Source of the DNA: Acidobacteriota bacterium
Lineage (GTDB): Bacteria; Acidobacteriota; Thermoanaerobaculia; Gp7-AA8
Length of the DNA: 64,000 bases
Assembly: GCA_019244185.1 (NCBI GenBank)
Contig: JAFATB010000006.1
Coordinates: forward strand, 192,001 to 256,000
Direction of reading: 5' to 3'
Numbering within the stretch: position 1 is the stretch's first letter; each line of letters opens with the position of its first letter. The notes under the pieces were generated by a model, which did not search any database, was not told where the DNA came from, and was given only the letters and a program-made list of their open reading frames with translations. Both the position numbers and the translations under genes were made by a program. Of this stretch, positions 8,259 to 58,543 are shown in pieces.

Positions 8259-8267
8259 CTCAACCCC

Positions 8268-8594: not shown

Positions 8595-8603
8595 ACCAGT
8601 ACC
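8568..8603 (-). repeat. Right terminal inverted repeat
   Basis: Reverse complement is GGTACTGGTTTACTTTCCCCATCCACTTGTAACAGG. Confidence 0.9.
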
Positions 8604-8965: not shown

Positions 8966-9003
8966 ACACGCTAGCCACTTGACTGCATACAATCGCGGCT
9001 CCG

Positions 9004-9555: not shown

Positions 9556-9564
9556 CGCGAACCG

Positions 9565-10735: not shown

Positions 10736-10740
10736 CCTTC

Positions 10741-11271: not shown

Positions 11272-11280
11272 CTCACCTCA

Positions 11281-12050: not shown

Positions 12051-12521
12051 TTACTTAACGGTATTTTCGTCCCAGGCCGCGTTGAAAGCGCGATGCAGCA
12101 AAGGATCATCCGGCCCAGTAGGCAACCATCCGTCCCTGACGTCCGATGAATTGAACCACTGCCATACACGATGGCATTGCTCCTCATAATACTCGCCGAC
12201 AAGGGTCATCCAATCTGAAAATGCTTGGACTCGGGCGTACTCGGCGCTTGAGTCACCGCGCCAACCATCGGGCAGGTACTCGCGCAGAAACCTAGACAAG
12301 GTATCGACTGCGAATGCCCGCATGTCGTCTGACATTTCCGCTTCCTCTTTCAAGAGGAGCTTCAACTGAATCGGCGCCACGGAACTTGAGAGAACCTCAA
12401 TCATCTGATCGAAGGTTTCAGTTCGATGCGACCGAGCAAATTCTGTCGCGCTGCGGTATCCAAGTGCACGCACCCTCGACCGCAATCGTTCGTGCCAGTC
12501 GCCATCCCAAACGTTTGTCAT
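12051..12521 (-). CDS. Cognate immunity protein of the giant RHS toxin
   Basis: ATGA overlap with the toxin stop. 'WDGDWHERLRSRVRALGYRSATEFA..GWLPTGPDDPLL' resembles proteins that follow DUF2380-type toxins (from memory). Confidence 0.85.
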   Translation of the reverse strand: MTNVWDGDWHERLRSRVRALGYRSATEFARSHRTETFDQMIEVLSSSVAPIQLKLLLKEEAEMSDDMRAFAVDTLSRFLREYLPDGWRGDSSAEYARVQAFSDWMTLVGEYYEEQCHRVWQWFNSSDVRDGWLPTGPDDPLLHRAFNAAWDENTVK

Positions 12522-15500
12522 TGTCGAAATGGGACAAACGAGCCTGAAAGGCCATAGTCCCTCATCATTTGCTTGCCAACATCGAAAACTTCAGCAAACG
12601 TCAATGCCCGCCCAAGAAGCTTTTCGCGCTGCGAGATGCGGGACATGATCTGTCGATTCCATTCGCCTTCCCATTTGCGACCAAGGCGATAGTTCCCGCC
12701 TCCGTGAATGGCTTGATGAATCGCTTCGTCCAACTCCAGAGTAAACTGATCAATATCGCGACCCCCTGTGAAACCACGGACCTCAAAGAACGCTCGAAAT
12801 TCTTGAGGAAAAACATGGTGACGAGGATTGCGGACCACGCCGGCACCGCGCGCGCCAGTCTCAGTCACCGCATCCGATTCTGGGCCCTCCCCCAAGGAAT
12901 CGTGCACTGAACTCGCGAGCACAATCGTCGAGACCATCGGGCCACTTCGTGCGCTACGCGCGATCACTCCCGCCGTGGGCAATACTACTCCCGAGCTTGT
13001 CGCAAGTGCCGGTGCAGGAGTTGTCGGCGTGTTCATCGCGGACACTGTCCCGCGCACAGCTGTATAGCCATCAAGCAACGCTGGTGCAGCCGCGCGTGCT
13101 ATGTCTTCTTTGCATCCACTGCTCGAAGCGGCGTCGATTGCCTTTACTCGCTTGTCAACCGCGCCTCCAATAACATATACTGGCGTACCTTCGCCACGTT
13201 CGACAGCCGCGATGGCAAGTGACAGGCTGCGTCGTTCCTGACGACGAGCGTCTGCGGCATTCTCATGCACCCATCCCCCATACCCGAATGTTAGGGTATC
13301 GATGAGTTTCACAGTTTGATCCCCACCAAAGTTCATGAATCCGACGAATGCACCCTTAGCCCATTGCCAAGCGCCCTCCCCTGCCGCTTGTAATGATGCA
13401 AGCGTTGTGTTCTTGCATGGCTTCTGCAGCCCTGAAGGGTCTCGATCATTTACGGGGTCGCCCCCAGCGAAGGTATAAAGGTTTGAAGCGTCGACGTACC
13501 CCAGCGGATCCGGCGACAGGAACGCCCCCCGCCCCGCATCAAACCAGCGCTCCCTCGCGAACACGAGTCCCGTCCCTACCTCCTCGAACGGCAAGGCCTG
13601 GAACGACGACATGAGGATGCTGCGACCCACTGCCGGCTCCGCTGGTGAGCCCAAGGCGGCGAGGGAGGGGGCGGCGTAGGGGGTGGTGGTGGGGTCGGGG
13701 GCGGCGAGGAAGGACGTGAGCGTCGCGAGGGACGCGCGGTATTCGACGGGGAGGGTGGGGGAGGTGTGGATGGGGTGGGCGGTGGTGGCCCAGGTCGGGG
13801 GCGGGAGGATGGGGGTGGCGGTGGACCACGCTTTGGCGCGGAGGGTGTTGGTGACGGCAATCGAGAGCGATTGGACGTCGCCGGTGGGGGACGTGAGCGC
13901 GGTCCACTGGGTGGGGGTGAGGGTCCAGTGGATGGTGTTGGGGTCGGAGAGCGTGGAGGTGACCGTCGCGGTGCGGACGACGTTGCCGCTCGCGGTCACG
14001 GCGGCGAGGCGGGTGCCGGTGGCGAGGGTGGCCTCGTCGAGGGCTTCGGTCGAGCGGATCGAGACCTCCACGGCCGTGAGGTTACCACTCGCGTCTTTGG
14101 TCTTGCTCAGCGTGATGCGATCGATGGCGGCGCCGGCGAGGCTGCTTTCTTCTTCGCCGTAGGCGCCGTCGACGACGGTGCGGGAGATGACTTTGCCGTC
14201 GTCGCCGAGGATGAGCTGGAGGTTGCCGTTGCCGGCTTCGTCGAAGACGGGGTAGAAGTGATGCACGTCGGGCGTCACGCCGTCGGTCACGGTCACCTCG
14301 AGCGGATCGTCGTAGGCGGCGTCGCCGTGGATGAGTTGGCGGAGAAGACCTCCGTTGGCGTCGACGGACGGGTTCGCGCTCGCGCCGGCTTTGTAGACGG
14401 AGACGAGACGGTCGGAGATCGGGTCCCACACGAACGTCGTCTCGGCGGGCAGGCCGTCGGCGAAGAGGACGGCGTCGCGGTTCTCGAGCTTCCAGTCGCT
14501 GTCGAGCGGCGGCATGGAGATGGAGCTCAGCTGCGCATACTCGACGCGGCGGCCGACGATGCGGTTGCTCGCGGCGTAGTCGTAGCGGAAGCGGCGGATG
14601 GTGAGTGACGGCGTCGGGATTTCGGTCGCGGTGATGATGCGGCCGCGGTCGTCGAACTCGTACTGATAGCGGCCATCACCCGTGCGCTCGGCGCCGATGT
14701 AGGTGAACGTGTGCGACTCGCCGTTCGCGGCCACGGTGCCGATGCGGTGTCCGGACAGCTCGTCGAAGTTGAGCGTCGGCGGCGCGGCCGGTTCGACGGA
14801 CGGCGACGGACGCTCGAGCTGCGTGCGGAAGCCGGCGTCGGTGACGTGCTCGATCGACGGATTGCTGCTGTCGTCGTGCGCGGTGACGGTCGTGAGCAGA
14901 CGGCTGCGCGCGTCGTAGGAGTACTCGTTGAAGCGTGTATCGGCGGAGATGCCGAGGAGCTGCTCGCGTTTGATCTGCACGCCGTCGTACGTGATGGCGG
15001 AGCCGCCGACGACGTTGCCGCCGGCGACGATGCGCAGCTCGGAGAGCTGTCCCGCGTTCGCGGTGTCGTAGGTGTACTGACGCTCGATGACGGCCGACGC
15101 GCTCGTCGTCAGCGTACGCACGTTGGGGCGGCCGGCATTGCGGTAGTCGGCGGTGAGCAGCGGCATCGGCGACGGCGCACCGATGAGCGTGCGCGTCATC
15201 GCGCTCACGTTGCCGGCGGCGTCGTGGCTCTCCCCTACCTTCTGCGTCCATTGCGTCGCGCTGGTGGGAAAGCCGCTGTAGGACGGCATCGTCCACGACT
15301 CGCGTTCGCCGTGCACGTTCCAGGTGTGATCCTGCTCATAGGAATCGAGCACGGTCGCCGAGCCGAAGCCGGAGTGATCCTTGAAGCGCGTCTGCTTCGT
15401 GCGGCGCGGGCGATCCTCGAAGTCGTAGTCCTCGAAGACGAGCGCGGCGTCGCGCGTGCGCCATGTGGTGATGCGGCCGGCGGCGTCGTAGTCGAGCTTC

Positions 15501-18500
15501 TCGATGAGCTCTCCGCCGTTGCGGCGGATCTCGGTGAGCTGGTTCTTGTCGTCGTAGGTGTAGTTGAAGAGGCGGCCTTGGCGGTCCTTCATCGACGCGA
15601 GGCGCGAGCCGTCGTAGGTCCAGGTCTCCTGCGTGCCGTCGGGATAACGGCGGACGCTCGGACGGCCGAGGAGATCGGACTCGGTCGTTTCGGTGAGGCC
15701 GGTGCCGGTGCCGCCGTCGGACTCGTCGCGATACGACGTGTCGGTGCCGGCGGCGTGATAGCCGTACTTCACTTCGGGGGCGCCCGGCTCGCGTTTCGAG
15801 AGCAGGTTGCCGCGCGCGTCGAAGTGCTGCCTCGTCGACTCGCGCGCGGGCGGCGCGTCGGCGGTGACGTTGCCGTCCTCGTCGTAGCTACGCTTCCACT
15901 CGAGCGCGCCGGCCTGGTTCCGCGTCGGATTGCCGAGCGTGTCGTAGTCGTACTGCATGTCGATCGGCGAGGTCGCGCCGCGCTCGGTGAGCGTGCCGTT
16001 CTTGACCATGCCGCCGGTGTAGTCGGAGGCGAGGTACTTCGAGAACTCGGTCGTGATGGTCGACGTCGTGCCGGCGCCGGCGATCGAGGACTTGAGGCGT
16101 CCCGCGTCGTCGAAGGCCTGCTTCGCGGCGCGTCCGCTGACGGCGGTCGACGTGATGCGGCCGGCGCCGTCCCACTTCATCTCGCTCTCGCGCGTTTGCG
16201 TCGCGTCGACTCTCGTCTGCGCCGACGTCATGCGGCCGTTCGGCGTGTAGCTCGCCTGCGACTCGCCGATGAGCGTGCCGACCGCGTCGTAGGTCTTGAT
16301 GCTCTTCGGGTTGCCCCAGTCGTCGTAGTCGGTGACGGTCTTCACGCCGTTCGGCGCGAGCGACGCGGTGGCGCGGCCGTGGACGTCGTAGGCGACGGCA
16401 CTCGCGCTGTGGTTGTCGGCCGAGTAGACGAGGTTGCCCGCGAGGTCGTACGCGTACTGTTCGACGATCGGCGTGCCGCCGGTGGTCGTGGTGCGCTTCG
16501 CGACGCGTCCGAGTCCGTCGAGTTCTTCGGTGACGACGGCGCCGCCGGGCAGCATGCGCACGATCTTGCGATTGGTGAGGTCGTAGTCGGTCGTGGTGGT
16601 GACGGAGGTGAGGCTCTCGCCCACCGCGACGTTGTTCGTCGTCGACTGCTTCACGCGACCGAGCGGGTCGTACGCGAGCGACGTGGTCACGGTGTGGGCG
16701 TCCTGCTTGTGCGTGGTCTCGGTGAGGCGTCCGTTGAGGTCGTACTTGGACGACTCTTCGAGCGAGAGCGACGGGCCGGTCGTCACGCTCGACACCGGAC
16801 GGCGCCAGCCGTCGAGGTTCGTGAGCGTCGAGACGCCGCGCTCCTCGTCGACCTTGATCTGATCCGGCCCCGGATACGCGAACTTCGTCTGCAGGCCGGA
16901 GGCATCGACGAGCTCCGGCATCGCGCGCGCGTACTCCGGCGCGGTGGCGTCGCGGAACTTGTAGCTGACCGATGCGTTGCCGCCGGCGTCGGTGCCGCCC
17001 GTGCTCGTGACGGTTTTCGGCTGGCCGTACGCGTCGACTTCGACCGTCGTCGTGATGGCGTCGTTCGTGGCCGCGACGCTCTTCTTCATCGCACTCGGCT
17101 CGGAGGTATGGATCGTGTCGCTGCCGATGCTGACGCTCTCGAGATACGCGGGACGCGGATTCGACGACGCGTCGTCGTAGCCGAAGGTCCGCTTGATCGG
17201 CGTCGCGCCGCTGCCGCTCGTTTCGCTGGTGAAGAGCACGAAGCCGGGCGCGCCAGGCTCAATCGATTTGTAGGTGTTCGTGGTCGTGCGGATCGTCGCG
17301 CTCGTGGCGCCAATGCCGGAAAGCGTCGCCGTCTCCAGCATGCCGTCGGGCACATACGTGAAGAGCATGCGCCGCGTCAGCGACTCGGTCGGCGCGCCGG
17401 ACGGCGTGACCGCGGCCGGCAACGTGCCGAACGGCGTCGTCACCGCGGCGACGTTCGTCTCATCGAGCTGCCTCACGTGCGCGCGGTCGGTGGTGTAGTT
17501 GCCCGGCTGCGGCGTGAGCTCGTAGACGCGCTCCTGGCCGAGAACGTCTTTGGTCGTGGTGTGCGTCGCGTCCGTGTAGGTGAACGTGGCCGACTCGCCG
17601 GTCTTCCACGTCTGCGTCTTCACCTTGTCGCGATCGCTGGTGCTGTACGCGAACGCGACGCGCGGACCCTCGCCCATCGGATCGGTGATGGACGTGAGGT
17701 TCGGCGCGAGCTCGAGCTTGTCGTTGTACGTCGATGCGGGCGTGCCGTAGCCGTATTGCGTAGTCGGACGTCCGGTGCCGGTCTCCGGCAGCGTCGCGGT
17801 GATGAGGCGGCCCGCGTCGTCGTAGTCGTAGTCGACGCGCCCGAGCCAGCTTTCGATCGACTGCAGGCGTCCCGCTTTCAGTCCCGTGCCATCGGGGAAG
17901 TACATGAGGCGCGACACGCGGCCGACCGGATCGATGACCTGCGCGAGGCGGCCGCTGAGATCGTAGAGATAGCGGACGACGTTGCCGGCGTCGAGCGCGT
18001 ACGCGTTCGGCGCGAACTCGTCGGTCTCGTGCACGAGGCGTCCCATCGAATCGAACGCGCTGATGCGCGCCTTCTGATCGACGAGCACCCAACCACGATC
18101 GGTGCGCGAGAGCTTGAGGAAGAGTCCCTTCGGACGCTGGTAGAAGCCGGTGGCGTTGTCGAGCGTGAAGCGCCAGATCTCGCCGGCGCCGTCGCGATAT
18201 TCGACGTCGCCGTTCGGCAGCGCGCGCAGGCGGCGGAAGATCGACGACTCCCACCCCATACCGACCGTGCCGCCGATCGTGCGCGAGCGATACGTGCGAT
18301 CGAACAGGGCGTTCCAGCCGTTGCGGCCGCCCGCATCCATGTCGAGCGCGGAGGTCTCGACTTCGCCCGAATGGAGATACGTCGTCTCCTGCAATGCGCC
18401 GCCGGCTACGGGAGGCGCCTGCGCGGCGACGAGCACGCTCGGCGGACGCACGGTGTCGGCCATGATGGTGGCAAAGCGCGCGGTGAAACGGTTCTCGCGT

Positions 18501-34447: not shown

Positions 34448-34495
34448 GTGATTCCTGGTTGTGTTGGACCCGGACCTGACGATGGACCTGAACGA

Positions 34496-49400: not shown

Positions 49401-52400
49401 TCGTCCTTCTGCACGTTCGGCGGCGTCTGCGTGTCGCGCGCGCCGCTGACGGTGAGGCGGTAGAACGACGACTCGGCGATGGCCACGCCCCGCGGCGCGA
49501 TGACGAACGTCGTCGCGTCGGCGGGATCGGGGAACGCGGAGATCGGCAGGACTTCGACGGCGTTGCCCTTGTACGCGTCGAGATTCTCGAGGCGCACCAC
49601 GCCGCCGATCTCGAACGAGTTCGCGGCGATGGCCTTGTTGAACTTCACGCGGAACGTGGCGCTGGCGGGGATCGGCTCGGTCTCCGCCGGATCGACCTTC
49701 AGCACCGCGGGCTCGGTGTAGTTGACGGTGGTGAAGCTCGAGCCGACCGCGGTGAGCATCGGGTTGCCGGTCGTGTCCTGAATACCGGCGGGGATGGCCA
49801 GTCGATAGAGCACGTTGCTCTTGAGCGGGAACTTCTGGCCCGCGCCCGGCGGCGGCGGGACGAGCTTGACGATGAACGTCCCATCGGGACGCACCGACGG
49901 CTCGACCGTGCACGCGACGAGCGAGCTGTCGTCGGTCGCGAGCAGTTGGAACCACGAGCCGTTGAGATACGCGGCCGCGAGTTGCTCGCTGAAGGTGATC
50001 GTGATCGGCGTCGACGGCGAGACGCTGGTGGCGTTCGCCGGCGGATCGATCGACAGTACGCGCGGCGGCGTGGCGTCGATGCGCACGCGCGGCACGACGA
50101 TCGTCCCGGTCGTTCCGTCCGCGACCGGCACCGTGCGCGTGGCACCGATGGTCGTGTCGTCGGGGCCGTAGAACGTGAACGCGAGCGTGGTGCCGCCGAC
50201 CGGAATGCCGGTGAAGCGGTACGCGCCGTTCGCATCGGTGAGCGTTTCGAGGCGCAGCGGCTGCGAGAGACGCGAGGTCACCAGCAGCAGCACGCGCGTG
50301 CCGGCGGACGGAGTTCCGTTGCCGATCTCCGCGTCGACGCCGCCTTCGACACTCGCGTTCGAGCCGAGGTTAAGCGTGAGCTGGAGCGGTTGCGAGCGGC
50401 TCACCAGCGAGCCGCCGCCGGACGCGGTGACGTTGCCCTTCGACGCCGACGCGGTGATCCAGCCGAACGGCACGCCGGGCAGCGTGACGCTGCCGGTTGA
50501 CGGCGTAAACATCGTGCGGTTCCCGATGCCCGGCGCGAAGAGGTCCACCTTCGCGTCCTCGACCGGATTGCCGCTGCCGTCGAGCACGTGCACCTCGACG
50601 GTTCCCGACGTCGGCAGCACGACGTCTTCCGTTTTCTCGAGCGCGCCGCCGAAGCCGCCGCCGCCTTTCACGACGCGCCCTTCGCCGCCGAGCTCGCGGA
50701 CCTCGAAGCCGTAGCCGGACGAGGCGAGCATCTTCCGGAAGATGGTCGGGTTGCCCTGCTGCCCGCGGTAATACGGCACCGGCCCCCAGATCAGATCGCC
50801 CTGCCACACCGTGACCTCGGCGAGCGGCGCGAGGTCGCCCGCCGCGCCGTTGTCGAGCGGCAGATGCACGCGCACGGTGAGCGTGGCCGTGCGCTCGAGC
50901 TCGAGGTGGATGTTCTTCTGCTCGGGCACGAGCGTGCTGATGAAGAGTCCGGACGGACCGACCGCGCGGCGCAGCGAGCCGATCTCGTACGCGATCAGCG
51001 AGAACGGACCTTCCGGCACGCCGTTGAAGACGAACGCGCCGTCGACGTCGGTCGACGCGGCGGCGCTGCTGCCGGTGGCCTGCAGCTGGACGGGCATGCC
51101 CTTCGACGGCAGCCCCGGCGTCGGCTCGCTTTCCGGATCGGTGAGCGTGCCGGAAACGAGTCCGCGGAACTCGAGCTGCACGGTGACGGGCACGGTGCTG
51201 CCCGCGGCGACGTCGAAGTCGACGGCGTGTCCCGCGCGTCCCGCGGACTTCGAGTACGCGACGATCGTGTAGCGGCCCACCGGCACGCCGTCGAAGAACG
51301 CGACGCCGTTGTCGTTGGTGCTCGTAAAGTCGAAGCGTCCGCTGCCGCGCAAGAGCGCGACTTCGGCATTGGCGACCTTCGCGAAGCCGAGGAGCGGATC
51401 GGTGACCGTGACGCTGACGGCACCGGTGCCCGCGCCGCCGATGCGCACTTGCACGCTGCGCTGCGTGGCGTCGCCCTCGTCGCTGAGATGTCCCTGGTAG
51501 TCGCCGCGCAGTTCCTGATTCGTGGGATCGACGGCGGTGATGCGGAAGTCACCGGTGAAGACGTTGCTGACCACGAAGCGGCCGTTGATGTCGGCCTGCA
51601 GCGGATCCTGCGGCGTGCCGATGGCGCGGTACGGCCAGGCCAGCTCGCGCAGCCAGTAGCGCGCCAGCGGCACCTTCACGCCGTTTTGGTCAAGCACTTG
51701 ACCTTCCACCGTCGACTGCGTGCGCATGACGATGACGAGGTTCGAGACGGGGCCGCCACCGCCCGGCGTCGCGCCGCCGACGATGCCGGTGCGATAGACG
51801 CCGTCGCGCTCGAGGTCCGCGACGATGGTGAACGGCGTGCCCGCGGCGACCGCGGCGAAGCGGAACGTGCCGTCGGGATTCGTGATCGCGGGCGCGTATG
51901 TCGCGCGGTCGGTGTAGAGGCGCACGGTCGCGCCGGACACCGGCGTCACGCCGTCGTGCGCGTAGACGCGGCCGGTGACGTCGCCGATCGTGGAGAGGCG
52001 CAGCGTCACGTTGCGGACGTCGCCGTCGTACGCGAGATACGCCTGGCCCGCCGCGAAGCCGGCCGGATTTCGCACCGTGGAGAGGCCGACGTTCTGCCGC
52101 GCCGGCACGTTGTGGAAGGTGACGAGGCCCGTTTCGGAGTCAGGCGTGCCTTCGAACGTCTTCGGACGGAAGCCCTGCTCGGCCTCGTCCCACACGCTGT
52201 ACGACATCGCGATCGGCCCGAGGACCTGCGCGTAGCACGGAGGCGTGGAGCACGGCTGCTCGATTTCCGTGCGCACGACGATCGTGCCGGAGCCGGGCAG
52301 GTGGAGATCGGTGACGCCGACCTGGCCGCCGAAGTCGACGCGCACGTTGCCGCTCGCGGCCTGATCGCCGTACGGCGAGTTGCCGCCGGACGGCACCGCC

Positions 52401-55400
52401 ACGACGTCGACCTGCTGCGGCACGCGCATGTCCGGCAGCTCGTAGACGCCGTCGCCGCGCGGCGTGAAGCTGGTCGCGGGGAAACCGGGCCAGATCACGC
52501 GGTAGCCGGTGACCGGCTCGCCCTGCGGCCCATAGAGACGGATGCGCATCGTGGCCGTGCCCGCGGGCTCGGTGCTGCGCAGCTTCATGTTGAAGTGATT
52601 CGAGCCGGCGACGAGCGTCGGCACGCTGAAGTAGCCGCGGCGTCCGGTCGCGGGATCGAAGACGCTGATGCGGCGCTCCGCCGCCGACAACGGCAGATCG
52701 GCGATCGTGTACGAGCCGTCGGGATTCGTGGTGACGGGCGAGACGCGGTCGATGGTGACGATGGCGCCGGCAGCCGGCGCATCCTTCGACGCATCGCCCG
52801 GCGCCGCCGGGTCATCGCGGATCACGACGCCTTCGAGCGTCGCCGTCTCGACGTTCGGCGCCGGCACGGAGAGGACGAGCGTCTGCTCGAGCGTCTGGTC
52901 GGGACGCAGCTCGACCTCGACGCCCGCGCCGTTGCGGCTGATGCCGAAGTCGGCCGCGAGCACCGACACGACGCCCGCGGGGATACCGCTGAAGAGGAAC
53001 GTGCCGTCGGCGTCCGTGCTGCCGTCGCGCAGCGCGTAGCCCTGCGCCCAGACGCCGACGAGCGCGCCGGCGACGGGCGCGTTCGTGTCGGAGCGGCGCA
53101 CGATGACGCGCACGCTGCCGAGTCCCGGCGCATCGCGTTTCACGATGACGAGGTCCTGCGTCACGACCTCGCCGGCGACGCGGATCTGGTTCGCGGCGAA
53201 CGTCGGACGCCCGTCGTTGTCGAAGACCGAGAACGTGAGCGGCCCCACCGGCAAGTCGCCGATGTCGTAGTTGCCCGCGGCGTCGGTCCGGCCGTGCCGC
53301 ACCTGATCGAACATCGTGCTGCCGATGGTGACGTCGACGTCCGCCACGACCTCGCCGTCGCTGTAGCGCACCTGTCCGCGCGCGCGGCCGCGGCCGAGGA
53401 ACTGGAGGTTGACAGTGTGAACCTCGCCGGGGAGACGCACCGCCCCTTCGAGCTTCGCGCTCTTCCCTTCCGCCTCGGCACTGAGCGCGTAGCCGCCGTA
53501 GATGCCGCTGTCGGCGTCGCGCGGAACGAACTCGTAGAGGAAACGTCCGTCGGCGCCGGTGACGTCGATCTGCTCGCCGCCGGTCTCGCCCGTCATCCGC
53601 ACGAGTACGTTCGGGATGACGCTGTTGTCGCCGCGCAGCACGAGGCCGGTGAGGATCGCGCCGGGACGATCGTTGTCGATCCGAGGCACGACGTCGCTCA
53701 CCGCGAACGTCACCGCCGGCGCCGAGATGTCGTGAATCGCGTCGACGGCGAGGAGGTACTGCGCATTGCGCGAGAGCGCTTTGTCGAAGGTGACGTTGAT
53801 GATCTTCGCGTCGTCCTGCAGCGCGGCGCCGGGGATCTGCAGCTGCGCGTTCGGATCGGACGGGACGTTCTTCCGCGTGACGTGGTAATTCGCCTTCGGC
53901 ACGTCGACCGTGAGCGCGAACTGATCGCGCAGCGTCGCCGCGTCGCTGATGCGGACCGGCCGGTTGAAGAGCAGCGAGACGATGTGCCCGCGGTCGTCGA
54001 GATGGAGGTCCTGCGCCGCGCCGATGACGCGCAGTGGCGTCTGCGGCACGACGTTGACGGTGGCAACGCCGACGGCGTTCTTCACCACCAGCGCGTGCGA
54101 GCCGCGCACGACGTCGACGTCGACCGCGACGCCGGGCGTGGCGCCGGTGATCGCGAGATCGGTGCGCAACTGCACGCCGTCGTTCGCGTCGGGATAAATG
54201 AGGTGCAGCGTGAACGACGCCGCCGCGGGAACGACGGACACGCGCAGCGTTTCGTTCGGCCAGCGTCCGACCAGCGCGAGCTCGCCCACATCGCCGCCGG
54301 CATTGAGTCGCGTGAGCTGCGCGTACGGCAGCGTGCGAATCCACCCCTCCGCCGCTTCCGCCGGAACGTCGGCGCGCGTGCCGGTCGCGAGCGCCGTCAC
54401 GGACACCGCGTATGGCCGCGCGGCGCCATCGACATTCGCGCCGTGCGCGTACGCGAAGAGGAACCCGGTGCGATGCGACGTCGCCGCGGCGAACTCGCTC
54501 ACGAATTGCTGCGGCGTCTCGCCGTTCGAGAACGCCTGTGTCTCGAGCTGCCGCGCCATCGCCGCTTCCGCGCGTCGCCCCGACTCCTCGGCACGGCGCA
54601 GGTCGTCCCACTCCCGCAGCTCCGGCGCCGTGTTCGCCTGATCGACGCGCTCCGCGTTGCCGAGCAGATCGAGCGCGAGCTGGAAGAACGGCTCGCGATT
54701 CTCGAGCGGATCGCTGGCGCTGAGATCGCGCCGCGCGACGAAGATCCGCTGCCCCGCGCGCGCGATCTGCTGCGCGCGCGTGAAGACGTCCGTCTTCAGC
54801 ACGCGCGGGAACTTGGCCGTCGCCTGCGTGAGCGGCGCCGTGGCCAGGCTGTAGCCGAGGCCGAGGAGCTGCATGTTCGCGTCGACGAAGTCGGAGGGCA
54901 GATAGCGCGCGTAGTACGGCAGCACGAGCGTCGCCGGCGACAGCGGAATGCCGGTCGCGCTCACGCCCATGGTCAGCTTCACGCTCGCGCCGACCGTCTC
55001 GTCGTTCGCCACGCCGGCGGCGGCGAACACTTTCCCCGTGATCTTCGAGTTGAGCTTGTACGGCACCGGCTTCATCTCGCCCGGCTGGAGGTCGAGCTCC
55101 GCGGTTGGCGCCGTGCCTTCCTCGCGGCAGATGTTCTCCGCCGCCGCGCCGGAGGTGCACGCCGGGATCTGCGAGAGGTCGAGGAGCACGTGCTGGAAGT
55201 TCGCGCTGAGGTTCGTGACGAAGGCGTACGCGGTGTACCTCTCGTCCTTGCGCACGGTGTCGGGGTGGGAGAAGTTGATCTGGAAGCGCGGGTCGCTGAC
55301 GACGAGCGTCGTCGAGACGTGGCCGCGCAGCGGGAAGTCGGGCTGGCCGGGCTGCTGGTACGTCGCGTTCACTTCGACGTTGACGCTGTGCGTGCCCGCC

Positions 55401-56428
55401 TTGAGCGCCTCGAGCGTCCATTCGGCGCTGCCGCGTCCCGCGGCGACGAGGAAGCTCGCGCCGGTGCTCTCGTCGACGATCGGCACCGGCTGCCCGAGGG
55501 AGACCGCGGGGACGACTTTCGACACGCGCAGCTGCGTCGGCGTGCCGATCGTCGCCGTGACCGAGTCGAGGCGGATGTTGCTGCCCGCGGGCGCGCCGTT
55601 GTCGACTTGCAGCACGACCGCGAAGAACTGGTGCAGCACGCCGAAGCCGGTCGGCACGACCAGCGCCGCCGGAATCGAAGGCCGCCCCGGCCGCCCTTCG
55701 TGATCGAGCCCGTCGCCGCCGTCAGGTGGTCCGCCATCGAGCTCGAACGTCGCCACCGAGGGCGGCTCGAAGCGCGGCGGACGCGCGTTCACCGGCACCG
55801 GCGGAATCGTGTACTGCGACTCGCGCGGCAGCGGCGTGACCTCGTGCGTGCGGCGGTCGATGATCACGGGATACGGGATCTCGACCGTGGTCTGGTCGAC
55901 GCCGAAGATGAACGTGTATTCGTAGACGTCGTAGTTGCGCGCGTCGACGACGATGCCGCGCTGGCGCAGCTCGTCGGGCGTCAGCTGTCGCACGCGCACG
56001 TGTGTCTCGAGCACGTCGCTGACGTTGATGATCGCGAACGACGGGACGGCCTGCTGGAGGAACGCGCCGTCCGCGCCGACGAGGCGGATGTTCTGCAGCT
56101 GATAATCCCCCTTCGCATGCAGCGCGGGGATCGCGAACGCGCGGCCGGGCGTCGTCGCGAGCGTGATCGGAGTGGTGATGCCGGGGCCGGTGAGCTCGCC
56201 GAGCGCGGAGAGCCCGTTCGCGGGCGGCGCCTCGTCGCCGGTCTTGCCGCCGAAGAGCGTCTGCACGTACGGCGGAACGTCGACGGCGGTGACGACCGGG
56301 TTGCGATCGACTTCCAGGCCGAGGCCGAGGATGTCGAGATCGGCTTTGGCGACCTCGCCGGCCGCGAGGGGGACGGCGAGGAGCGCGAGAAGACAAAAGA
56401 CTCCAATGCGTGTCTGACGGAGGCGCAT
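34496..56428 (-). CDS. Giant (7310 aa) secreted adhesin-like protein: signal peptide, tandem carboxypeptidase-regulatory-like domains, Big_5/Ig-like domains, four Gly-rich modules, two LVIVD-type propellers, two C-terminal F-type lectin/discoidin-like domains
   Basis: Uninterrupted ORF with signal 'MRLRQTRIGVFCLLALLAVPLAAG'. Repeated 'G.V....V.GA.V....T.ADG.F.F..IP.G', repeated 'TYGS..RP..GSGG..GGG.I....DGAIRANG', 'VYDVSNPASP' repeats, and C-terminal 'AHT..QEWWQVDLG..IDVWN..CCQERL..GRYVRVQL..EVQVW' twice. Confidence 0.93.
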   Translation of the reverse strand: MRLRQTRIGVFCLLALLAVPLAAGEVAKADLDILGLGLEVDRNPVVTAVDVPPYVQTLFGGKTGDEAPPANGLSALGELTGPGITTPITLATTPGRAFAIPALHAKGDYQLQNIRLVGADGAFLQQAVPSFAIINVSDVLETHVRVRQLTPDELRQRGIVVDARNYDVYEYTFIFGVDQTTVEIPYPVIIDRRTHEVTPLPRESQYTIPPVPVNARPPRFEPPSVATFELDGGPPDGGDGLDHEGRPGRPSIPAALVVPTGFGVLHQFFAVVLQVDNGAPAGSNIRLDSVTATIGTPTQLRVSKVVPAVSLGQPVPIVDESTGASFLVAAGRGSAEWTLEALKAGTHSVNVEVNATYQQPGQPDFPLRGHVSTTLVVSDPRFQINFSHPDTVRKDERYTAYAFVTNLSANFQHVLLDLSQIPACTSGAAAENICREEGTAPTAELDLQPGEMKPVPYKLNSKITGKVFAAAGVANDETVGASVKLTMGVSATGIPLSPATLVLPYYARYLPSDFVDANMQLLGLGYSLATAPLTQATAKFPRVLKTDVFTRAQQIARAGQRIFVARRDLSASDPLENREPFFQLALDLLGNAERVDQANTAPELREWDDLRRAEESGRRAEAAMARQLETQAFSNGETPQQFVSEFAAATSHRTGFLFAYAHGANVDGAARPYAVSVTALATGTRADVPAEAAEGWIRTLPYAQLTRLNAGGDVGELALVGRWPNETLRVSVVPAAASFTLHLIYPDANDGVQLRTDLAITGATPGVAVDVDVVRGSHALVVKNAVGVATVNVVPQTPLRVIGAAQDLHLDDRGHIVSLLFNRPVRISDAATLRDQFALTVDVPKANYHVTRKNVPSDPNAQLQIPGAALQDDAKIINVTFDKALSRNAQYLLAVDAIHDISAPAVTFAVSDVVPRIDNDRPGAILTGLVLRGDNSVIPNVLVRMTGETGGEQIDVTGADGRFLYEFVPRDADSGIYGGYALSAEAEGKSAKLEGAVRLPGEVHTVNLQFLGRGRARGQVRYSDGEVVADVDVTIGSTMFDQVRHGRTDAAGNYDIGDLPVGPLTFSVFDNDGRPTFAANQIRVAGEVVTQDLVIVKRDAPGLGSVRVIVRRSDTNAPVAGALVGVWAQGYALRDGSTDADGTFLFSGIPAGVVSVLAADFGISRNGAGVEVELRPDQTLEQTLVLSVPAPNVETATLEGVVIRDDPAAPGDASKDAPAAGAIVTIDRVSPVTTNPDGSYTIADLPLSAAERRISVFDPATGRRGYFSVPTLVAGSNHFNMKLRSTEPAGTATMRIRLYGPQGEPVTGYRVIWPGFPATSFTPRGDGVYELPDMRVPQQVDVVAVPSGGNSPYGDQAASGNVRVDFGGQVGVTDLHLPGSGTIVVRTEIEQPCSTPPCYAQVLGPIAMSYSVWDEAEQGFRPKTFEGTPDSETGLVTFHNVPARQNVGLSTVRNPAGFAAGQAYLAYDGDVRNVTLRLSTIGDVTGRVYAHDGVTPVSGATVRLYTDRATYAPAITNPDGTFRFAAVAAGTPFTIVADLERDGVYRTGIVGGATPGGGGPVSNLVIVMRTQSTVEGQVLDQNGVKVPLARYWLRELAWPYRAIGTPQDPLQADINGRFVVSNVFTGDFRITAVDPTNQELRGDYQGHLSDEGDATQRSVQVRIGGAGTGAVSVTVTDPLLGFAKVANAEVALLRGSGRFDFTSTNDNGVAFFDGVPVGRYTIVAYSKSAGRAGHAVDFDVAAGSTVPVTVQLEFRGLVSGTLTDPESEPTPGLPSKGMPVQLQATGSSAAASTDVDGAFVFNGVPEGPFSLIAYEIGSLRRAVGPSGLFISTLVPEQKNIHLELERTATLTVRVHLPLDNGAAGDLAPLAEVTVWQGDLIWGPVPYYRGQQGNPTIFRKMLASSGYGFEVRELGGEGRVVKGGGGFGGALEKTEDVVLPTSGTVEVHVLDGSGNPVEDAKVDLFAPGIGNRTMFTPSTGSVTLPGVPFGWITASASKGNVTASGGGSLVSRSQPLQLTLNLGSNASVEGGVDAEIGNGTPSAGTRVLLLVTSRLSQPLRLETLTDANGAYRFTGIPVGGTTLAFTFYGPDDTTIGATRTVPVADGTTGTIVVPRVRIDATPPRVLSIDPPANATSVSPSTPITITFSEQLAAAYLNGSWFQLLATDDSSLVACTVEPSVRPDGTFIVKLVPPPPGAGQKFPLKSNVLYRLAIPAGIQDTTGNPMLTAVGSSFTTVNYTEPAVLKVDPAETEPIPASATFRVKFNKAIAANSFEIGGVVRLENLDAYKGNAVEVLPISAFPDPADATTFVIAPRGVAIAESSFYRLTVSGARDTQTPPNVQKDDRVFEFFSFDTKKPIARITSSDDNLVSELLYTASVRVTDDGTDDESNDIAYVDWLDANGTAIARVRTKPFAYSFAAPAATTTGSTFTLQAVATDLSGNSSPAPDVHTWNVLPNDPPRDILVTNTPDAAYPTHAVHTTVAFHDEGLKVTLALELRGTATNGDALHQIVGSQNITRPSTAVPFPDASFDWTLPATLKDGAATLVVTATDSVNKSGIAEVPLTVLADTTKPEIVAFTPKAETHYQYNTASGSYTIELQVRDAETGIARATISVGGVAQSGVTSSFDSATGITTFRKSVTVPPRNADTRVPVAVSVYDQRDNVTTDTHEVIYDRVDDATIPTAAWITPLDGAALPANQSDWLTTLRVRATDDVKVTSVRFESTALAAPVDATLRAGTSDVFEARVAFTFPADRTPFTVKAIVDDADPSHSVELPITIDPVDVDRVISANINISSITADQYANRSVLVRGVRVYVSVPLALKDLVLVDGAVLSNPEETKLDLTIADHLFVDADSRVDLTGRGYLGGLHGREDRTPGNASRLGRTRSGNGAANADASYGGIGGSYVGTTNATYGSITDPVDFGSGGGAQPSGGDRPGSNGGGAVLLRGGSGLARFVLAGPVLADGEPPSGSTFWMLGSGGTISLRAHALITGPWTRISANGADGGAENNLDRGAGGGRIELRASDRFEVALSAIQARGGRHTGADNEAHVDGGAGTIYLVRPGATLGELVVSSFDDRVPATAHRTAATPIGGGAFDSITIGPRVLARFDSEPSGTLTVDPSASIVRPNDPFALTLVSSDPAAGSSVAQNTTITVHVTAESASGIRQLRATLGVQPVDVFAYPNFVSPLGDTTLTIAIPNDAPLGATTLKLYATDRAGRVAESAPLAFNIIHNAAPVIDAFDVSATETYANHNIDVSAAASDDVAVTSLALASSQGSVTSGTATRPTPQTMTRTFSVAIPSSAPSGSDVTLTLSALDDVPGRIATTQTKTVHILKDTLAPSLAVATPQPNAQLQEGTGATFVVEATSSDAEVAVQRVTVTFDGVTSDLTYAGGDVYRRTLNVPSVDGSEPIAKTLTVTSIDYDGNTESRTLTVYIKPLVDPNAAALAWVCASPNASYPLGYEFPLRVTATPSSPSNGVERVEFSINGATPVLASRIGGSDQYEIRYTIPGGTANDTSFDVRVTATSAGGNQAVLLGSFTAVANAIDVSTRSVVTPLDAGYQNRDVVVRAGGDLVLSGEQHLRNLIVLDGGKVEQQQVADGTPLPVVSVQRLFVACGGAIDVSAQGYPGVTAYPGSATPTDSSGGGHIGRGGEWSPPGGGTYGSIEHPAEKGGGGHTIDPNYATTGGGVLRLDVETFVTVDGAIRANGIDNDTWGPGAGGSVYLTTRGRLAGGGSIEARGGGDNNNRGGGGGGAIAIEYGSLGGTIADHLVARGGRTNSGRPGAAGSVFIRANGAALGDLVIDNAGFGTGVETDLPWLGAHTIASVSNGTATLANRAYIQPFQVGNWARVVAPDGTIRGTYRIASIENDPQAATPSASFWFGNDQIAYDGYLVYRPGGFVEGRKIAMTKFENGQWSYDNDDGRPFVPFTPDASDRVFASFRKNSPHIYDVRRLTCGTTCGSIGGIAVAELVGGSVYANAYGGIYSGNVVRYVDTEFSEFLFAFDTDWRNVTLVRTAPRITLASTDGSPVVMQPGDQLRGVYRFNHVTVRGGAHVLSRDTIESANAPAVAADSSLVTNASGPAIDASKVTIEQGRTGPVLAGAAGAVRDAEGVDVFARNTARPALPATAELLQNASFIELAPNRGGLRLQKIPNFNQAPGTIETPEVGDSAYLTFNDRSPNNLAFIGVANHYFHFPTGNRWEVWPNGAWANSGFTQGTLDASTRFRLEKTPDSVQWYVNDALVYELKTVVPPSAKFTFGFRDDWMYFDNVEFYSTAYGTRTRPSAADGSFRVPFDGAAGDAVTIAARDRNVFRLTTGEISIGAIPANLGVASVTFPGEVTGGGSTTGTVTLRAPAGSEGVLVLLSTTSSAVAIPSSVVIPSGATTATFNVATTPVANAVSAPIAATWGGVSVTGTLQIVKDHTAPSIAVTSPVPNAAFTEGQSAPIVVTATVTDTDSGVKRVFATLDGNTYELAHGSGDTYSAQLPVPFVDGTQDVTRDLVVSAEDNNGNSGSANAIPLVIHPVVDANAPSLAWQCAGSDALFPAGYAAKLRVVAKAPTPANVIRKVELTVSGTTVQAAPLGNDVWEATFTVPDLADGTQLPTHVVATTASGTTASVDGSFTVMKGAVEIRSSGTITAADSAYEHRSIAVFDGVTLTIAGAHTFDRVALLGNAVLAPMQEQPLAISVSTLYVACGASIDATAKGYTNRGSYPGVPGVNGDEGGGHIGRGGGEADDHRTYGSVDRPQEFGSGGTDTGGGWGGGAIRVNATNVVVDGAIRANGATDAGSGLGSGGGGSVWITTARIAGGGSIEADGGSGACSTGGGGAIAIEYSDPSSVVPAAYARPGAFAGCTRAAGGAGSVFIKRSGATFGDVTFDAKGRANDRVELEGIGSGLALAGSTGATLVTDRATDVPAYFAGHWIRITAPDGTVKGTWRITAISARTLTLAPNGSESINIVAGDQWQGLYRFDTVTARDVTIVSWDPIEATTYDVFGTVAATRVSATGVVVHAQSTLTHPTGGSLTIDAANEVRVDAGGAIDTTARGYTLRGSYPGVAGVGGEEGASHIGRGGKVASLKTYGSIDRPSEAGGAGTDTGIASGGGVVRIRAARVTVHGAIRANGANTGQSTLGAGAGGSVWITAGSVTGSGSIETIGGDGCASGGGGAIAIETTDSASALPALLARAGHTGGACVTAAGAPGSILLHRAQSTYGELTIDAAGVATSAITDLPSLGNGVAQNGSNGATLVTDFNVLPFFAGHWVEIANANGVKGVWRIAATNGNILTLAPNAGESMDIQPGDAWYGVQRFDTVRLFGARLQSADRVDTASLSEDGASSHLYNSGAPQFPAAKRAQIAVTSTSNGDAIVALAGAVVDPDTPIHVVATNLRTGQATTPVDAAADGSFTIPLVARAGDTFTVRATDTHAFPLASPSIPVAGTIVEQNGLGALGIAPANVVAGTSATGTVQLLQPARSAGVVVALASSSGAATVPPTITIAGGATSAQFTIATPSSPNAANVTITATLGTTTKTATLHVLATGTYTTTVTGRVLDERAHAVANAAVTCDTTSVATDASGFFSIANMPATGAITCNATLTLADGTTLSGASAATTPVADGITNVGDLVLHSSVVVTQLSQSSWGVDGSFRARNVVRDGTTLLVSGAGGGAGNGDSDRIALLDVSDPDHPAFVRSLSAGNTAIYDVAAVDGWAYIASYDFCTVNYANPSATKNCYGSIGALSLALVNRYMYVATNSDYRLRVYDVADPANARLIREQAMVPGSGFGSFFWRLIDLGNGYLAGLSYSGHDLMIFDVRDVNNIVTVADLDLPDFRTSRGRLNGKTLYLTNAYQTAAVDVSDPAHPVVLSRAIHTDDGSEGIAIVGTEAFPAAGSYGLAQYDITSPAAPFFERTIPFGGTARDVLFYANHAYVANDLGIAYAKLPVAPQVSAVDLTLTRGASDTAVHGRATAVSGAAPLTVTVTNRTTGATATGFAVRADGSFDASIAASSGDAIDVTAYDVVGRASITTNAGFVPFGASMTDFPFGGGTYRARTVRTDGHWLAVAKWADEGISGSNNELAVFDISNPAAPVYKWTLAAAEGSSYGLAVRDGWAYVGSYDFCTIDLTSSTSTRHCVGLDAGDLGVAVAGNYAFTSVNFGHNDGRIRVYDVSNPASPHLVHEQDTTPGTQLESLLAFGDDYLVATQAPSHDVIVIDHRDVNNLVKLADVDIPNFSAFRGAISGDTLYLAGYGDKIAVVDLSNPASPVVKSVFSNGAMTQGVAVSGNRAVFGGLMLGALFYDITDPNAPRYLGRQQTSGNAFDVALVNGVLYVANEQGLVTIPEGVAFTGNSGAPQFPQSKRAQIVVTSDAGGDFVTGPAGAVIDPDTPIHLAAKNVRTGAIYSGPAASDGSFRISVGGQGGDAFTLTATDSHVAPLSSTVAVNGAIVDANQLSTLTIEPSSVNAGESTFGTVRLATPARSSGIVVTLTSSASSVTLPPSITIAAGQTTAQFSIATAASTSNVTATITARYQQTKIAALNVAGTNGALASLALDANAVEGGASVNATVTLGSAAPAGGALVSLAASTTQLHVPPAVLVPAGTSQVTFTVTTDRVGAATTASVFATYGASKSASLTLNACATLASVARPSSTPLATMWIDDAPPSGANASGDATFDATQVAAGSLALHFAAGSGARSWTFANAAPMSVQPDDNLVLYALVNPCDPPRQILATWSDGTTQWRASWGESRLTPAATQVQLAALPAGGVWTRLEVLASSLGITSATNVNSLTISVDGGEAWFDAIGDAACVLGKAAKPSYLPGETVWFDDALPAGGVERTPFDWSSAQAASGTLSMNVPNGGGSHQSHFDSASATMTLGMDDVIVVYALIDPCAPPRELMLEFNDGGWSRRVYWGDDLVAYGTDGTVERRRMGSMPKAGEWVRLEIPVSSMQMAGMSLRGMSFVIYDGQAWFDRVAKVTRVNLAYHKPTSMSSWLSVNGREAAAPSPCPYNCAEYPVDGDMYSYAHTGNAPQEWWQVDLGAVQPIDAIDVWNGGFNMCCQERLSRFWVHVSDTPFTSGDLNATLAQSGVTSYFYYPNAQRPSTFDVRRTGRYVRVQLSGQEYLHPAEVQVWAPVSPQRVNLSAGRKATQSSTYQDYGPWLAVNANTNGVLGSEYSINHTTANLEEWWSVDLCSVQAIDSIDVWGRLDWPPHFLTNFYIFVSDEPIAGSTTAEALADPKVAAYYYGTPVLIGGKTFPIGRTGRYVRVQMTASSQFAINLAEVQVWSSLQTLRALATPSAPKAAALSSSSSSSSSTSTQSRFDFANAYRRNAHGRAAGLR

Positions 56429-56449
56429 GCAGGTGCTCGGCGCGGGCGG

Positions 56450-57307
56450 CTAGTGGGATTCGGGTTGAATGCGGGAGGGAAGCTGATCGAGCTCGCGGAG
56501 CTCGCGCGCGACGCGGACCGCCGGCGACTCGACTTTCCGCGCGCCCGGCGGAATCAGCTTGAGCTCCTCGGGCGCGAGCTCGCTGCGCACATCCAGCACA
56601 CTGTTGCGCATCGTCACGCGGGAACCGGCCGCGTCGATGGTGATGCTCGTTTCGAACGGCAGCGCGTAGTCGTCCTGCGCGGCGATGCCGTTTGCGGATT
56701 TCGCGCGATGCGCCGGATCGCCGTTCGTGGCGACGCGCAGAATCGCGTCGTGCTCCTCGCGGCGCGGATTGGGATACGCCGCGCCGATGAGGACCTCGAG
56801 CGCCGCGCGCGAGAGACGCGTATTGCGGTCGACGCCGATGTCGAGGGTGAGCTTGTCCGCGCCGTCGCGCGAGAGCTCGAACGAGTCGAGCGAGCGGCCA
56901 TTGCGCGTGCCTATTGTGCCGCGCGGCGTCGCCGTCCACGCCGCCGCGGATTTCTGTTGGGTCGCCGCCGGCTGCGCTTTCGCCAATGCATCGAACGGCG
57001 TAATGCTGTAGGTCCCCGCGCCGCGATCGATTTCCGTCAGCTGCTGCCGCGCATAATCCGCAATGACCACGCGCGCGCCGTTGACGGTGACGACTTCATC
57101 GCCCGCACAATACTGCTCGAACGTCGTGACCGTCTTCGCAATGGGATCTTCGACGCGCCGCACAATGTGCAGCGGCCGCGGGAACAATGCCTCCGCCGCC
57201 CGCACACCCGGCACGAACGCAGACACCACCACTGCCGCGCCGGCGACGAGCCGCACGAACAGTCTCCCCCGCCACACCCCCGAAAACACGGGCGTTTTGG
57301 ATTCCAC
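56450..57307 (-). CDS. Secreted/periplasmic protein (DUF4412/LolA-fold-like), first gene of the giant-protein operon
   Basis: GTG 57307 after an AG-rich tract. Signal-like 'LVAGAAVVVSAFVPGVRA-AE'. Beta-rich 'VVIADYARQQLTEIDRGAGTYSITPF' and terminal 'LIPPGARKVE'. Stop lies 21 nt before the next start. Confidence 0.75.
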   Translation of the reverse strand: MESKTPVFSGVWRGRLFVRLVAGAAVVVSAFVPGVRAAEALFPRPLHIVRRVEDPIAKTVTTFEQYCAGDEVVTVNGARVVIADYARQQLTEIDRGAGTYSITPFDALAKAQPAATQQKSAAAWTATPRGTIGTRNGRSLDSFELSRDGADKLTLDIGVDRNTRLSRAALEVLIGAAYPNPRREEHDAILRVATNGDPAHRAKSANGIAAQDDYALPFETSITIDAAGSRVTMRNSVLDVRSELAPEELKLIPPGARKVESPAVRVARELRELDQLPSRIQPESH

Positions 57308-58434: not shown

Positions 58435-58543
58435 CGACGCGCGCCCGTAGAACTGCACAATTGCGACACGCCGGCCCAACCAACGGCCGCGGCGAACGTC
58501 TGTAGAGTCGAACCCCCGATTCCAATCAAGTCAGGAGTGCAGG

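Follow-up and report, generated by a model that had tools for sequence, protein, structure and literature searches.

Organization of the locus

The 64,000-nt stretch analyzed here (hereafter the window; contig JAFATB010000006.1, positions 192,001 to 256,000) belongs to the contig designated C6 in a 5.3-Mb genome, 98.9% complete, of an uncultured bacterium of the Thermoanaerobaculia (phylum Acidobacteriota). Four open reading frames (ORFs) follow each other on its minus strand, coding for a small protein (S), two giant proteins (G1 and G2) and a 156-aa product (Table 1). The first three compose the cassette described in this study, a candidate toxin system built around the RHS shell of G2. S and G1 are separated by 21 nt, G1 and G2 by 48 nt, and G2 overlaps the 156-aa ORF by 4 nt. 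This compact co-oriented run had been pointed out in a previous sequence-only reading of the window and was recovered in the ORF list. The same reading attributed Sec-type signal peptides to both giants, in agreement with their hydrophobic N-termini, and it placed the start of the small protein at position 57307, which fits with the fact that S homologs aligned only from ORF residue ~35-60 onwards. The giants were further presented as twins. This resemblance is restricted to length, as no sequence similarity was detectable between them (best BLASTP E 0.016), and the near equality of 7310 and 7309 aa was itself attributed to chance: in the closest relative the pair measures ~6,807 and 5,908 aa.

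Reproducibility of the assembly was examined in public sequencing runs. Two runs each contained a 60,015-nt contig in which a 20-kb stretch spanning the G1-G2 boundary occurs with zero differences, and a 20,111-nt contig of a third run also bridges this boundary. The contig is abundant in rhizosphere, root and rock samples. These contigs indicate a reproducible assembly and not an independent occurrence, since the runs may be the source samples.

Table 1. Features of the cassette and of its downstream remnants. Coordinates are those of the window.
Feature	Coordinates	Strand	Evidence
S, LolA-superfamily fold (predicted), ~285 aa	56450..57307	-	ORF (open to 57409, 319 aa), AlphaFold, Foldseek
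G1, 7310-aa adhesin-like giant	34496..56428	-	ORF, Pfam, collinear orthologs
G1 signal peptide and N-terminal domain (residues 1-195)	55844..56428	-	Alignment, model
G1 residues 196-900: linker, beta-sandwiches, helical domain	53729..55843	-	Model, Foldseek, VIA
G1 discoidin pair (~residues 6985-7270)	34619..35476	-	PF22633, PF00754
G2, 7309-aa Sec-dependent stalked RHS polymorphic toxin (predicted)	12518..34447	-	ORF, Pfam, orthologs
G2 signal peptide, head and Ig stalk (residues 1 to ~3300)	24548..34447	-	Pfam
G2 pre-RHS region (residues 4300-5450)	18098..21550	-	Alignment of 19 orthologs
G2 RHS shell to DPSGL (residues ~5450-7007)	13427..18097	-	RHS_repeat, TIGR03696
G2 variable C-terminal toxin (residues 7008-7309)	12521..13426	-	Ortholog divergence, PF09533
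Putative immunity gene, 156 aa	12051..12521	-	Position
Degraded duplicate of G2 internal RHS segment	9567..10691	-	96.2% identity
RHS core-end remnant and truncated toxin start	8748..8978	-	tblastn, translation

G2, a stalked RHS cage protein

G2 starts with a Sec signal peptide, a trait shared by 14/14 other complete G2 orthologs inspected. Residues ~23-245 form a head that may be LamG-like, a reading made by eye and not by any tool. Behind it, immunoglobulin (Ig)-type domains extend over ~3,000 aa. Pfam matches comprised Big_13 (E 7.8e-70), Glucodextran_B (8 stretches) and Big_5, completed by Big_3_3 and CarbopepD_reg_2 within the first ~3300 residues, and further downstream DUF6531, RHS_repeat (PF05593, E 1.4e-21) and, at the C-terminus, DUF2380. 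Guanine-plus-cytosine (GC) content is 0.68-0.72 in the gene body.

The shell is preceded by a conserved region of ~1,150 aa (43% mean column identity in alignment A4, 19 orthologs), where families DUF6531, Big_5 and LVIVD were recognized at E <= 0.1 in 19/19, 16/19 and 5/19 orthologs, respectively, the last ones being weak propeller signals. The A4 profile had no match among PDB sequences, and the protein atlas gave no usable match for this region. An invariant CxxC (A4 columns C962 and C965) is located shortly before the DUF6531 plug, around window positions 18400-18500.

The end of the shell was recognized as an Rhs-associated core end (TIGR03696, E 1.7e-11, 44.5 bits for a cut-off of 32.5, residues 6958-7007), with DPLGY at residue 6980 and DPSGL at residue 7003, and it carries what is predicted to be a self-cleavage-type motif, DPxGL-x(n)-DPSGL. 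The nearest solved shells were those of Rhs proteins linked to a type VI secretion system (T6SS), namely 8qja (E 2e-9), 7q97 (E 1.1e-7) and also 8h8a (overall range E 2e-9 to 1e-7). The teneurin match reached only E 0.019, and the core end aligned weakly with TccC3 and YenC2 (E 0.003-0.01).

The toxin tip and its surroundings

Five full orthologs and one fusion form (G003mini, see below) were collinear with G2 up to residues 7006-7029 and diverged thereafter; the other fusion included in this comparison (G016mini) is cut off at residue 6367 by the edge of its contig. The variable tip of G2 is ~300 aa long. Its last ~100 aa matched the SitA6 family (PF09533, E 6e-8; TIGR02269, E 3.3e-8), the TIGR02269 match covering model positions 117-185 only and scoring 33.3 bits for a cut-off of 85.75. 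In PMC8546572, the SitA6 alleles assayed in Myxococcus are reported to comprise AHH nucleases, and an R-H-H tripeptide is present in the G2 tip. Domain content, core end and ortholog divergence agree with the Ig-stalked RHS toxin that had been proposed from the sequence. G2 is regarded here as a Sec-dependent RHS cage toxin of the polymorphic kind, whose variable tip is probably a nuclease and is followed by a small gene.

The 156-aa ORF that overlaps the end of G2 displayed no Pfam or NCBIfam match. It occurs as a single copy in the genome and was not kept beside orthologous cassettes, as expected of a module that is swapped together with its toxin. From its position, it is a likely immunity gene. 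Tip and ORF share a GC content of 0.596, lower than in the body of G2.

Two further traces of RHS sequences were found downstream. The first is a 1130-nt copy (96.2% identity) of the internal G2 segment at 16191-17318, and the ORF that covers it (9536-10726) ends out of frame relative to G2. The second displayed 62.5% identity to G2 residues 6962-7017 in a tblastn search; it codes for 76 aa before a stop and reaches ~25 aa into the toxin. Both had been listed as orphan modules. They turned out to be degraded RHS remnants with no intact orphan toxin-immunity pair and, judged from their sequence, are recombination debris.

These observations bear on the possibility that the system serves adhesion or kin recognition instead of killing, G2 being a teneurin-like surface recognition cage with a vestigial tip. 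Such a role is left open for bacterial teneurin-like proteins in the accessible text of PMC13018210, and adhesion-type domains are abundant in both G1 and G2. Yet, tips are swapped between orthologs, a small overlapping gene follows the tip, and the downstream RHS remnants are the usual marks of toxin-immunity turnover. Recognition without killing is accordingly considered very unlikely.

G1, a conserved adhesin-like giant

Like all aligned G1 N-termini, that of G1 consists of a hydrophobic Sec signal peptide. Pfam recognized CarboxypepD_reg (E 5.6e-46, 7 stretches), Big_5, Big_7 and LVIVD/beta-propeller families along the protein. Four Gly-rich modules were read by eye from the sequence as possibly beta-helix-like. 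The lectin-like domains previously announced at the C-terminus correspond to two F5/8 type C (discoidin) domains (PF22633, E 2e-21; PF00754, E 2.1e-13; 2 stretches each).

Comparison with orthologs showed that the N-terminal ~3860 aa are collinear, with 37-41% identity. The C-terminal ~940 aa, discoidin pair included, were also collinear (41-49%) in three of the four full-length orthologs compared, the fourth (G015:C52) being devoid of that end. Only the final ~40 aa vary where the C-terminal end is present. G1 is therefore a conserved structural protein and not a polymorphic one.

The first 900 aa displayed 53% mean column identity over 26 sequences, and the N-terminal domain (NTD) 56% in alignment A3. 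No Pfam, NCBIfam or PDB sequence match was obtained for these 900 aa, nor any meaningful Pfam match for 32 NTD sequences. A model of residues 1-920 (predicted local distance difference test, pLDDT, 74.8) displayed an Ig/FN3-like sandwich at residues ~34-140 (VIA Z 8-9 to Ig/FN3 domains) followed by a long hairpin (166-191). Then came a disordered Pro-rich linker (~200-280), beta-sandwiches, a helical domain of ~150 aa (~505-650) and more sandwiches, with an SbsC-like Ig domain at residues 797-920 (VIA Z 13.1). Two candidate relationships were discarded. An alpha-2-macroglobulin/TEP-like fold suggested by Foldseek corresponded only to strings of similar beta-sandwiches (template modelling, TM, score ~0.1), and a likeness of the NTD to Hcp in the protein atlas (0.88) was below the counting level, the structural search giving Ig/FN3 domains and no Hcp. 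The N-terminal region also contains two invariant cysteines, C424 and C434.

Distant proteins resembling the G1 N-terminus (37% identity) were encountered in two genomes from other families of the class (G032:C143 and G039:C264, with frames of 2,943 and 762 aa). S was not detected with either of them, and they may represent an older, S-independent form of the family.

S, a small protein with a predicted LolA fold

S possesses a signal peptide and no lipobox cysteine; likewise, the aligned N-termini of G1 and G2 displayed no conserved lipobox cysteine. It had no match in Pfam or NCBIfam, so that membership of a LolA, LolB or RseB family was not indicated by sequence in these libraries. Its AlphaFold model (mean pLDDT 85.9) was most similar to P. 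gingivalis LolA in Foldseek (8cgm_A, E 7.2e-8, TM 0.35 and 0.48 normalized on query and target, respectively). Altogether, 41 chains matched this model at E <= 0.001, most of them LolA, LolB, RseB and ependymin-related proteins. According to its model, S is thus a periplasmic-type protein with a LolA-superfamily fold, the open beta-barrel under a helical lid that is typical of LolA, LolB and RseB.

A search of 5.8 billion proteins yielded an S family of 235 members (E <= 1e-5). They are without exception unnamed or hypothetical, and every member with an organism label came from Thermoanaerobaculia. A shorter variant, devoid of ~residues 100-132 of the profile, which correspond to a low-confidence loop of the model, was found in G016, G018, G019:C153, G021, G196, G316, G353, G376 and G384. 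A complex prediction of S with G1 residues 1-190, made from alignments, spoke neither for nor against binding (score 0.01, mark 0.32).

Distribution and synteny of the cassette

Relatives retrieved with the first 200 residues of G1 were all uncultured Acidobacteriota, mostly labelled Thermoanaerobaculia. Of 41 related genomes, 24 had a match to S, 24 to the first 900 aa of G1 and 24 to residues 3301-5300 of G2 (22/39 each without the unpublished genomes G002 and G024, for which all six results were positive). At the genus level, 19 of the 24 other genomes carried all three parts, one carried two (G011, without a G1 match only) and four carried none (G005, G010, G012 and G023). Both genomes of a sister family from the same order carried all three. 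Over the whole class, S was recorded in 69/401 genomes (66/398 without the unpublished G002, G161 and G196, all positive): 65/96 in the family of the window, 2/2 in the sister family and one weak match elsewhere, with none in ~300 genomes of other families. The unpublished genomes contributed to these tallies only, and all loci fetched and analyzed come from other genomes. The cassette is therefore confined to one family and its sister family.

Synteny across genomes, which had been put forward as a check of the system, was strict: each of the 20 cassettes examined (19 fetched regions) had S, G1 and G2 co-oriented and in this order. Among loci retrieved by the NTD alone, S was directly upstream in 29/31, and the other two start at most 411 nt from a contig end. 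In genomes picked through the NTD alone, a G2-type gene was present in 5/5, directly behind G1 in each. Flanking genes, including the immunity ORF, were not kept beside the cassettes of relatives, and the cassette is therefore self-contained.

G015 harbors three cassettes and G044 four, the latter amounting to ~150 kb of a 6.1-Mb genome. That three or four cassettes take up ~2% or more of a genome argues for a selected function. One locus of G044 (G044:C8, loci L090-L094) displayed a tandem arrangement with a single S, S-G1-G2 followed by G1'-G2'. Splitting of one giant or of both into several ORFs was seen in three regions, and G1 and/or G2 occupied two or three ORFs in G026:C15, G027:C8, G043:C4 and G014:C411; frameshifts, errors of assembly or genuine decay may account for these splits.

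In 15 complete pairs, G1 ranged from 5,322 to 9,223 aa and G2 from 5,691 to 7,468 aa. Their lengths co-varied (Spearman 0.76), with a median difference of 161 aa that was reached in 0.2% of 20,000 shuffles, although the pairs are related to each other and this statistic, uncorrected for ancestry, overstates the case.

Fusions between the G1 NTD and the RHS part of G2

Short ORFs were found in G003, G016 and G017 where G1 residues 1-169 are joined directly to G2-type sequences, at G2 residues 6262, 4714 and 5465, respectively. Each of these fusions has its own S upstream. In G020:C284, adjoining matches to the G1 N-terminus and the middle part of G2 lie in one 373-aa open frame, with a junction around residue 4941 (from search coordinates only), and no S match was present on that contig. 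All three sequenced fusions break G1 after ...RN(Y/F)(D/E)VY (residue 169). In the NTD tree they were placed apart from each other, together with three different full-length G1s, two placements having starred support, and the fusion label required three changes. Fusion therefore arose repeatedly, at least three times. As judged from these sequences, the fusions suggest a functional tie between the two giants, and they are the strongest indication that the G1 NTD and the G2 cage work together.

The composition of the junctions is also of interest. The ...NYDVY end of G1 (window 55922-55939, residues ~164-169) followed by ...GR(L/P) of G2 makes up a canonical YDxxGR in two of the three fusion ORFs (L029, L034 and L036). 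The G1 hairpin located after the breakpoint may be YD-like, although Pfam does not call it.

Synteny and fusions are relevant to the idea that G1 and G2 are co-regulated but physically independent, the former being a surface or biofilm adhesin and the latter a WapA- or teneurin-like toxin, both of use in crowded communities. Each giant has its own Sec signal peptide, they share no sequence similarity, and partnerless Sec-dependent RHS toxins with adhesion modules are described in the accessible parts of PMC3482391 and PMC13018210. Yet, presence of the genes is all-or-none, their order is fixed in every cassette examined, G1 and G2 were duplicated as a unit in G044:C8, and the NTD was repeatedly fused to the RHS part. 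Physical independence remains a serious but doubtful explanation.

Relation to the T6SS and export route

At E <= 0.01, no PAAR, VgrG, two-partner secretion (TPS)/haemagglutination, autotransporter, type IX secretion tail, RTX or LPXTG family was recognized by Pfam in either giant. This agrees with the previously noted absence of PAAR/VgrG, TpsB-type, autotransporter, type IX secretion and sortase signatures.

A T6SS locus is nevertheless present on C6, 50-65 kb before the start of the window, with TssC at C6:126278 (E 1.8e-118) and a PAAR gene at C6:143170 (whole span G000:C6:126278-143370). In addition, at least seven other RHS proteins are encoded in the genome (contigs C2, C6, C7, C11 and C26; frames of 1,679-2,348 aa) and are more ordinary candidates for T6SS cargo. 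It may thus be proposed that G2 is a cargo of this T6SS, all the more since its shell is closest to T6SS-type Rhs shells. On the other hand, G2 starts with a Sec signal peptide, T6SS adaptor domains such as PAAR and VgrG were not recognized in it, and its 7309 aa are far above known cargo size. TssC was detected in 20/121 genomes of the family versus 65/96 for S. No TssC match was found in 14 of 21 cassette-positive genomes of the genus (the unpublished G002 being counted among the 14), including G015, which is 100% complete and holds three cassettes; conversely, G005 and G012 have TssC and no cassette. T6SS delivery is very unlikely because of this distribution and of the signal peptides, and the T6SS independence claimed by the sequence-only reading fits with the data. 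A cargo role for G2 was given hardly any weight.

The only conserved accessory gene of the giants is S. No outer-membrane channel gene was found among the conserved neighbors of the cassettes, and no anchoring motif at either end of either giant. A genome search for ShlB gave no match, nor did it in control genomes.

A YLHSGE stretch lies before the shell and is conserved in the A4 consensus; we take it to resemble the N-terminal self-cleavage site of T6SS Rhs proteins. Cleavage at this point could free the cage. If the cage, or G2 as a whole, were shed to the medium or in vesicles, by way of a secretin or by Tc-like lysis, the toxin would act at a distance, with G1 as a matrix. The giants have no anchoring motif and the genome codes for two secretins, which would suit such a release. 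Yet, an Ig stalk of 3,000 aa and a lectin-tipped partner are ill-suited to a diffusible toxin, and no lysis cassette was present near the genes. Release of a diffusible toxin appears improbable.

Relationships with known systems

Literature searches retrieved no publication describing the S-G1-G2 cassette. Among the closest counterparts of G2 are the teneurin-like proteins (TLPs) reported by Raoelijaona et al. 2026 (PMC13018210). According to the accessible part of that article, they occur in six phyla including Acidobacteriota, in 139 TLP-positive genomes, possess Ig and TTR adhesion modules as well as immunity genes, and have no evident delivery machinery. TLPs are characterized by an FN-plug, an NHL propeller and a YD shell, in that order, and by a TIP domain in the N-terminal part. 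TLPs as presented there and G2 have in common a Sec signal peptide, adhesion modules at the N-terminus, a YD/RHS shell flanked by a propeller, which in G2 is a propeller-like region, and a polymorphic C-terminal toxin. This toxin is self-cleaved in TLPs, and the immunity gene of TLPs has its candidate equivalent behind G2. Differences from the same description are that G2 is about three times longer, has a DUF6531 plug directly before the shell, has a shell that matches T6SS-type Rhs better (E 2e-9, versus E 0.019 for teneurin), and is accompanied by a conserved giant partner and a LolA-fold protein. Neither NHL nor a fibronectin-type family corresponding to the FN-plug was found in G2 and 19 orthologs by Pfam or by a profile search of solved structures. 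G2 fits the Sec-dependent RHS/YD cage toxin kind, and its membership of the teneurin-like proteins was not confirmed. In the accessible part of Zhang et al. 2012 (PMC3482391), a 'T2SS' class of RHS toxins is likewise Sec-dependent, with adhesion modules and no known partner.

CdiA/CdiB systems resemble the cassette by their conserved N-terminal domain with an accessory gene, long stalk, variable toxin, immunity gene, which is a candidate in the cassette, and orphan remnants. They differ in that no TPS domain or filamentous haemagglutinin repeats were recognized by Pfam in either giant, that the toxin is here carried by a second polypeptide, and that the conserved accessory is a soluble protein with a predicted LolA fold, where CdiA has the CdiB/ShlB barrel.

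WapA of Gram-positive bacteria combines a signal peptide, an RHS shell, a variable C-terminal toxin and a downstream immunity gene, and works with no T6SS. WapA hosts have no outer membrane, whereas the host of G2 has one, as indicated by a TonB-dependent receptor encoded in the window (named from a reading of its sequence); moreover, WapA is not known to have a giant partner or LolA-like gene.

Tc (ABC) toxins, made up of TcA and the TcB-TcC cocoon, share with G1 and G2 an RHS cocoon with a propeller (propeller-like in G2), a toxin that is self-cleaved (predicted for G2) and a separate, very large partner encoded adjacently. However, both giants have Sec signal peptides and the G2 cocoon, borne on a long stalk, is a single polypeptide. 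Pfam recognized no TcA or VRP1-type family in G1, and the model of its first 920 aa contained only the helical domain of ~150 aa.

T6SS Rhs effectors display the same DUF6531 plug, RHS shell, core end and polymorphic tip, and provide the closest solved shells. G2 departs from them by its Sec signal, the absence of PAAR/VgrG, a size 4-5 times larger and its occurrence in many genomes without a TssC match. Finally, myxobacterial SitA6 proteins are, in the accessible part of PMC8546572, small lipoproteins moved by outer-membrane exchange, and only the toxin end is common to them and G2. New features brought by the cassette are thus the size of G2, an obligate giant partner, a LolA-fold partner and recurrent NTD-RHS fusions.

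Neighboring sequences

Upstream of the cassette (57556-64000), the window contains a divergent gene for a secreted 292-aa protein, a secreted 517-aa protein, a membrane protein, a 226-aa ORF and a TonB-dependent-receptor-like ORF that runs off the window end. These names result from a reading of the sequences by eye, with no family-library scan. None of these genes was kept beside the cassettes of relatives.

At the other side, positions 1-14000 displayed a GC content of 0.56-0.63, versus 0.66-0.73 across the giants. Within these positions lie the tip of the toxin, the immunity ORF, both RHS remnants and, at 1577-3007, a STAND-NTPase-like ORF with weak matches only. By its composition, this low-GC block looks like an island of acquired DNA.

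Proposed function and significance

Taken together, these results make it somewhat probable that the cassette encodes a polymorphic RHS toxin system that is specific to this lineage, depends on Sec and does without the T6SS; three conserved genes and a swappable toxin-immunity end compose it. There is good support for what the toxin part does; the parts assigned to G1 and S, and any joint apparatus, are inferred. In the proposed scheme, Sec would carry S, G1 and G2 into the periplasm, where S may handle or hold the G1 NTD, itself a possible anchoring or export module of the system. G1 would then be displayed as an adhesin, its discoidin and propeller end binding glycans of the target cell. G2 might travel or dock with G1 and so present the toxin cage, the G1 NTD contacting the G2 RHS region as suggested by the fusions. 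Contact would release the tip, and cells without the immunity protein would be killed.

Several points weigh against this toxin system. Its expression, surface location, toxicity, immunity and G1-G2 contact are predicted here from genes. No outer-membrane translocator was linked to the cassette, the two secretins lying on other contigs. G2 has its own signal peptide and no NTD, and it may be independent of G1 altogether. As two of the three fusion junctions recreate the YDxxGR repeat motif, the fusions could be deletion scars left by repeat-driven recombination and not by functional selection. As to the tip, its reading as a nuclease depends on the sub-threshold TIGR02269 match, PF14412 (AHH) not being among the Pfam matches of G2, and the immunity role of the 156-aa ORF is positional.

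A more elaborate possibility is that S and G1 residues 1 to ~170 make up a hitherto unknown N-terminal module by which giant Sec-dependent proteins are anchored at, or exported across, the acidobacterial outer membrane, and that G1 and G2 build a two-filament contact delivery apparatus. The YD-like hairpin of the G1 N-terminus would dock on the G2 cage, a link turned covalent in the short fusions, and the lectin end would select the target. We regard it as speculative and rather unlikely. If true, Sec-dependent RHS or teneurin-like cage toxins would thereby have a delivery machine; how they reach target cells is described as unknown in PMC13018210.

Sec-dependent RHS and teneurin-like cage toxins are widespread, and the cassette may show how they are deployed without an injection machine. 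One lineage offers two strictly co-inherited candidate helper genes, and the fusions point to the place where they may meet the cage. Abundant uncultured soil Acidobacteria devote up to a few percent of their genome to such weapons or adhesins, an investment that bears on competition in soil and rhizosphere.

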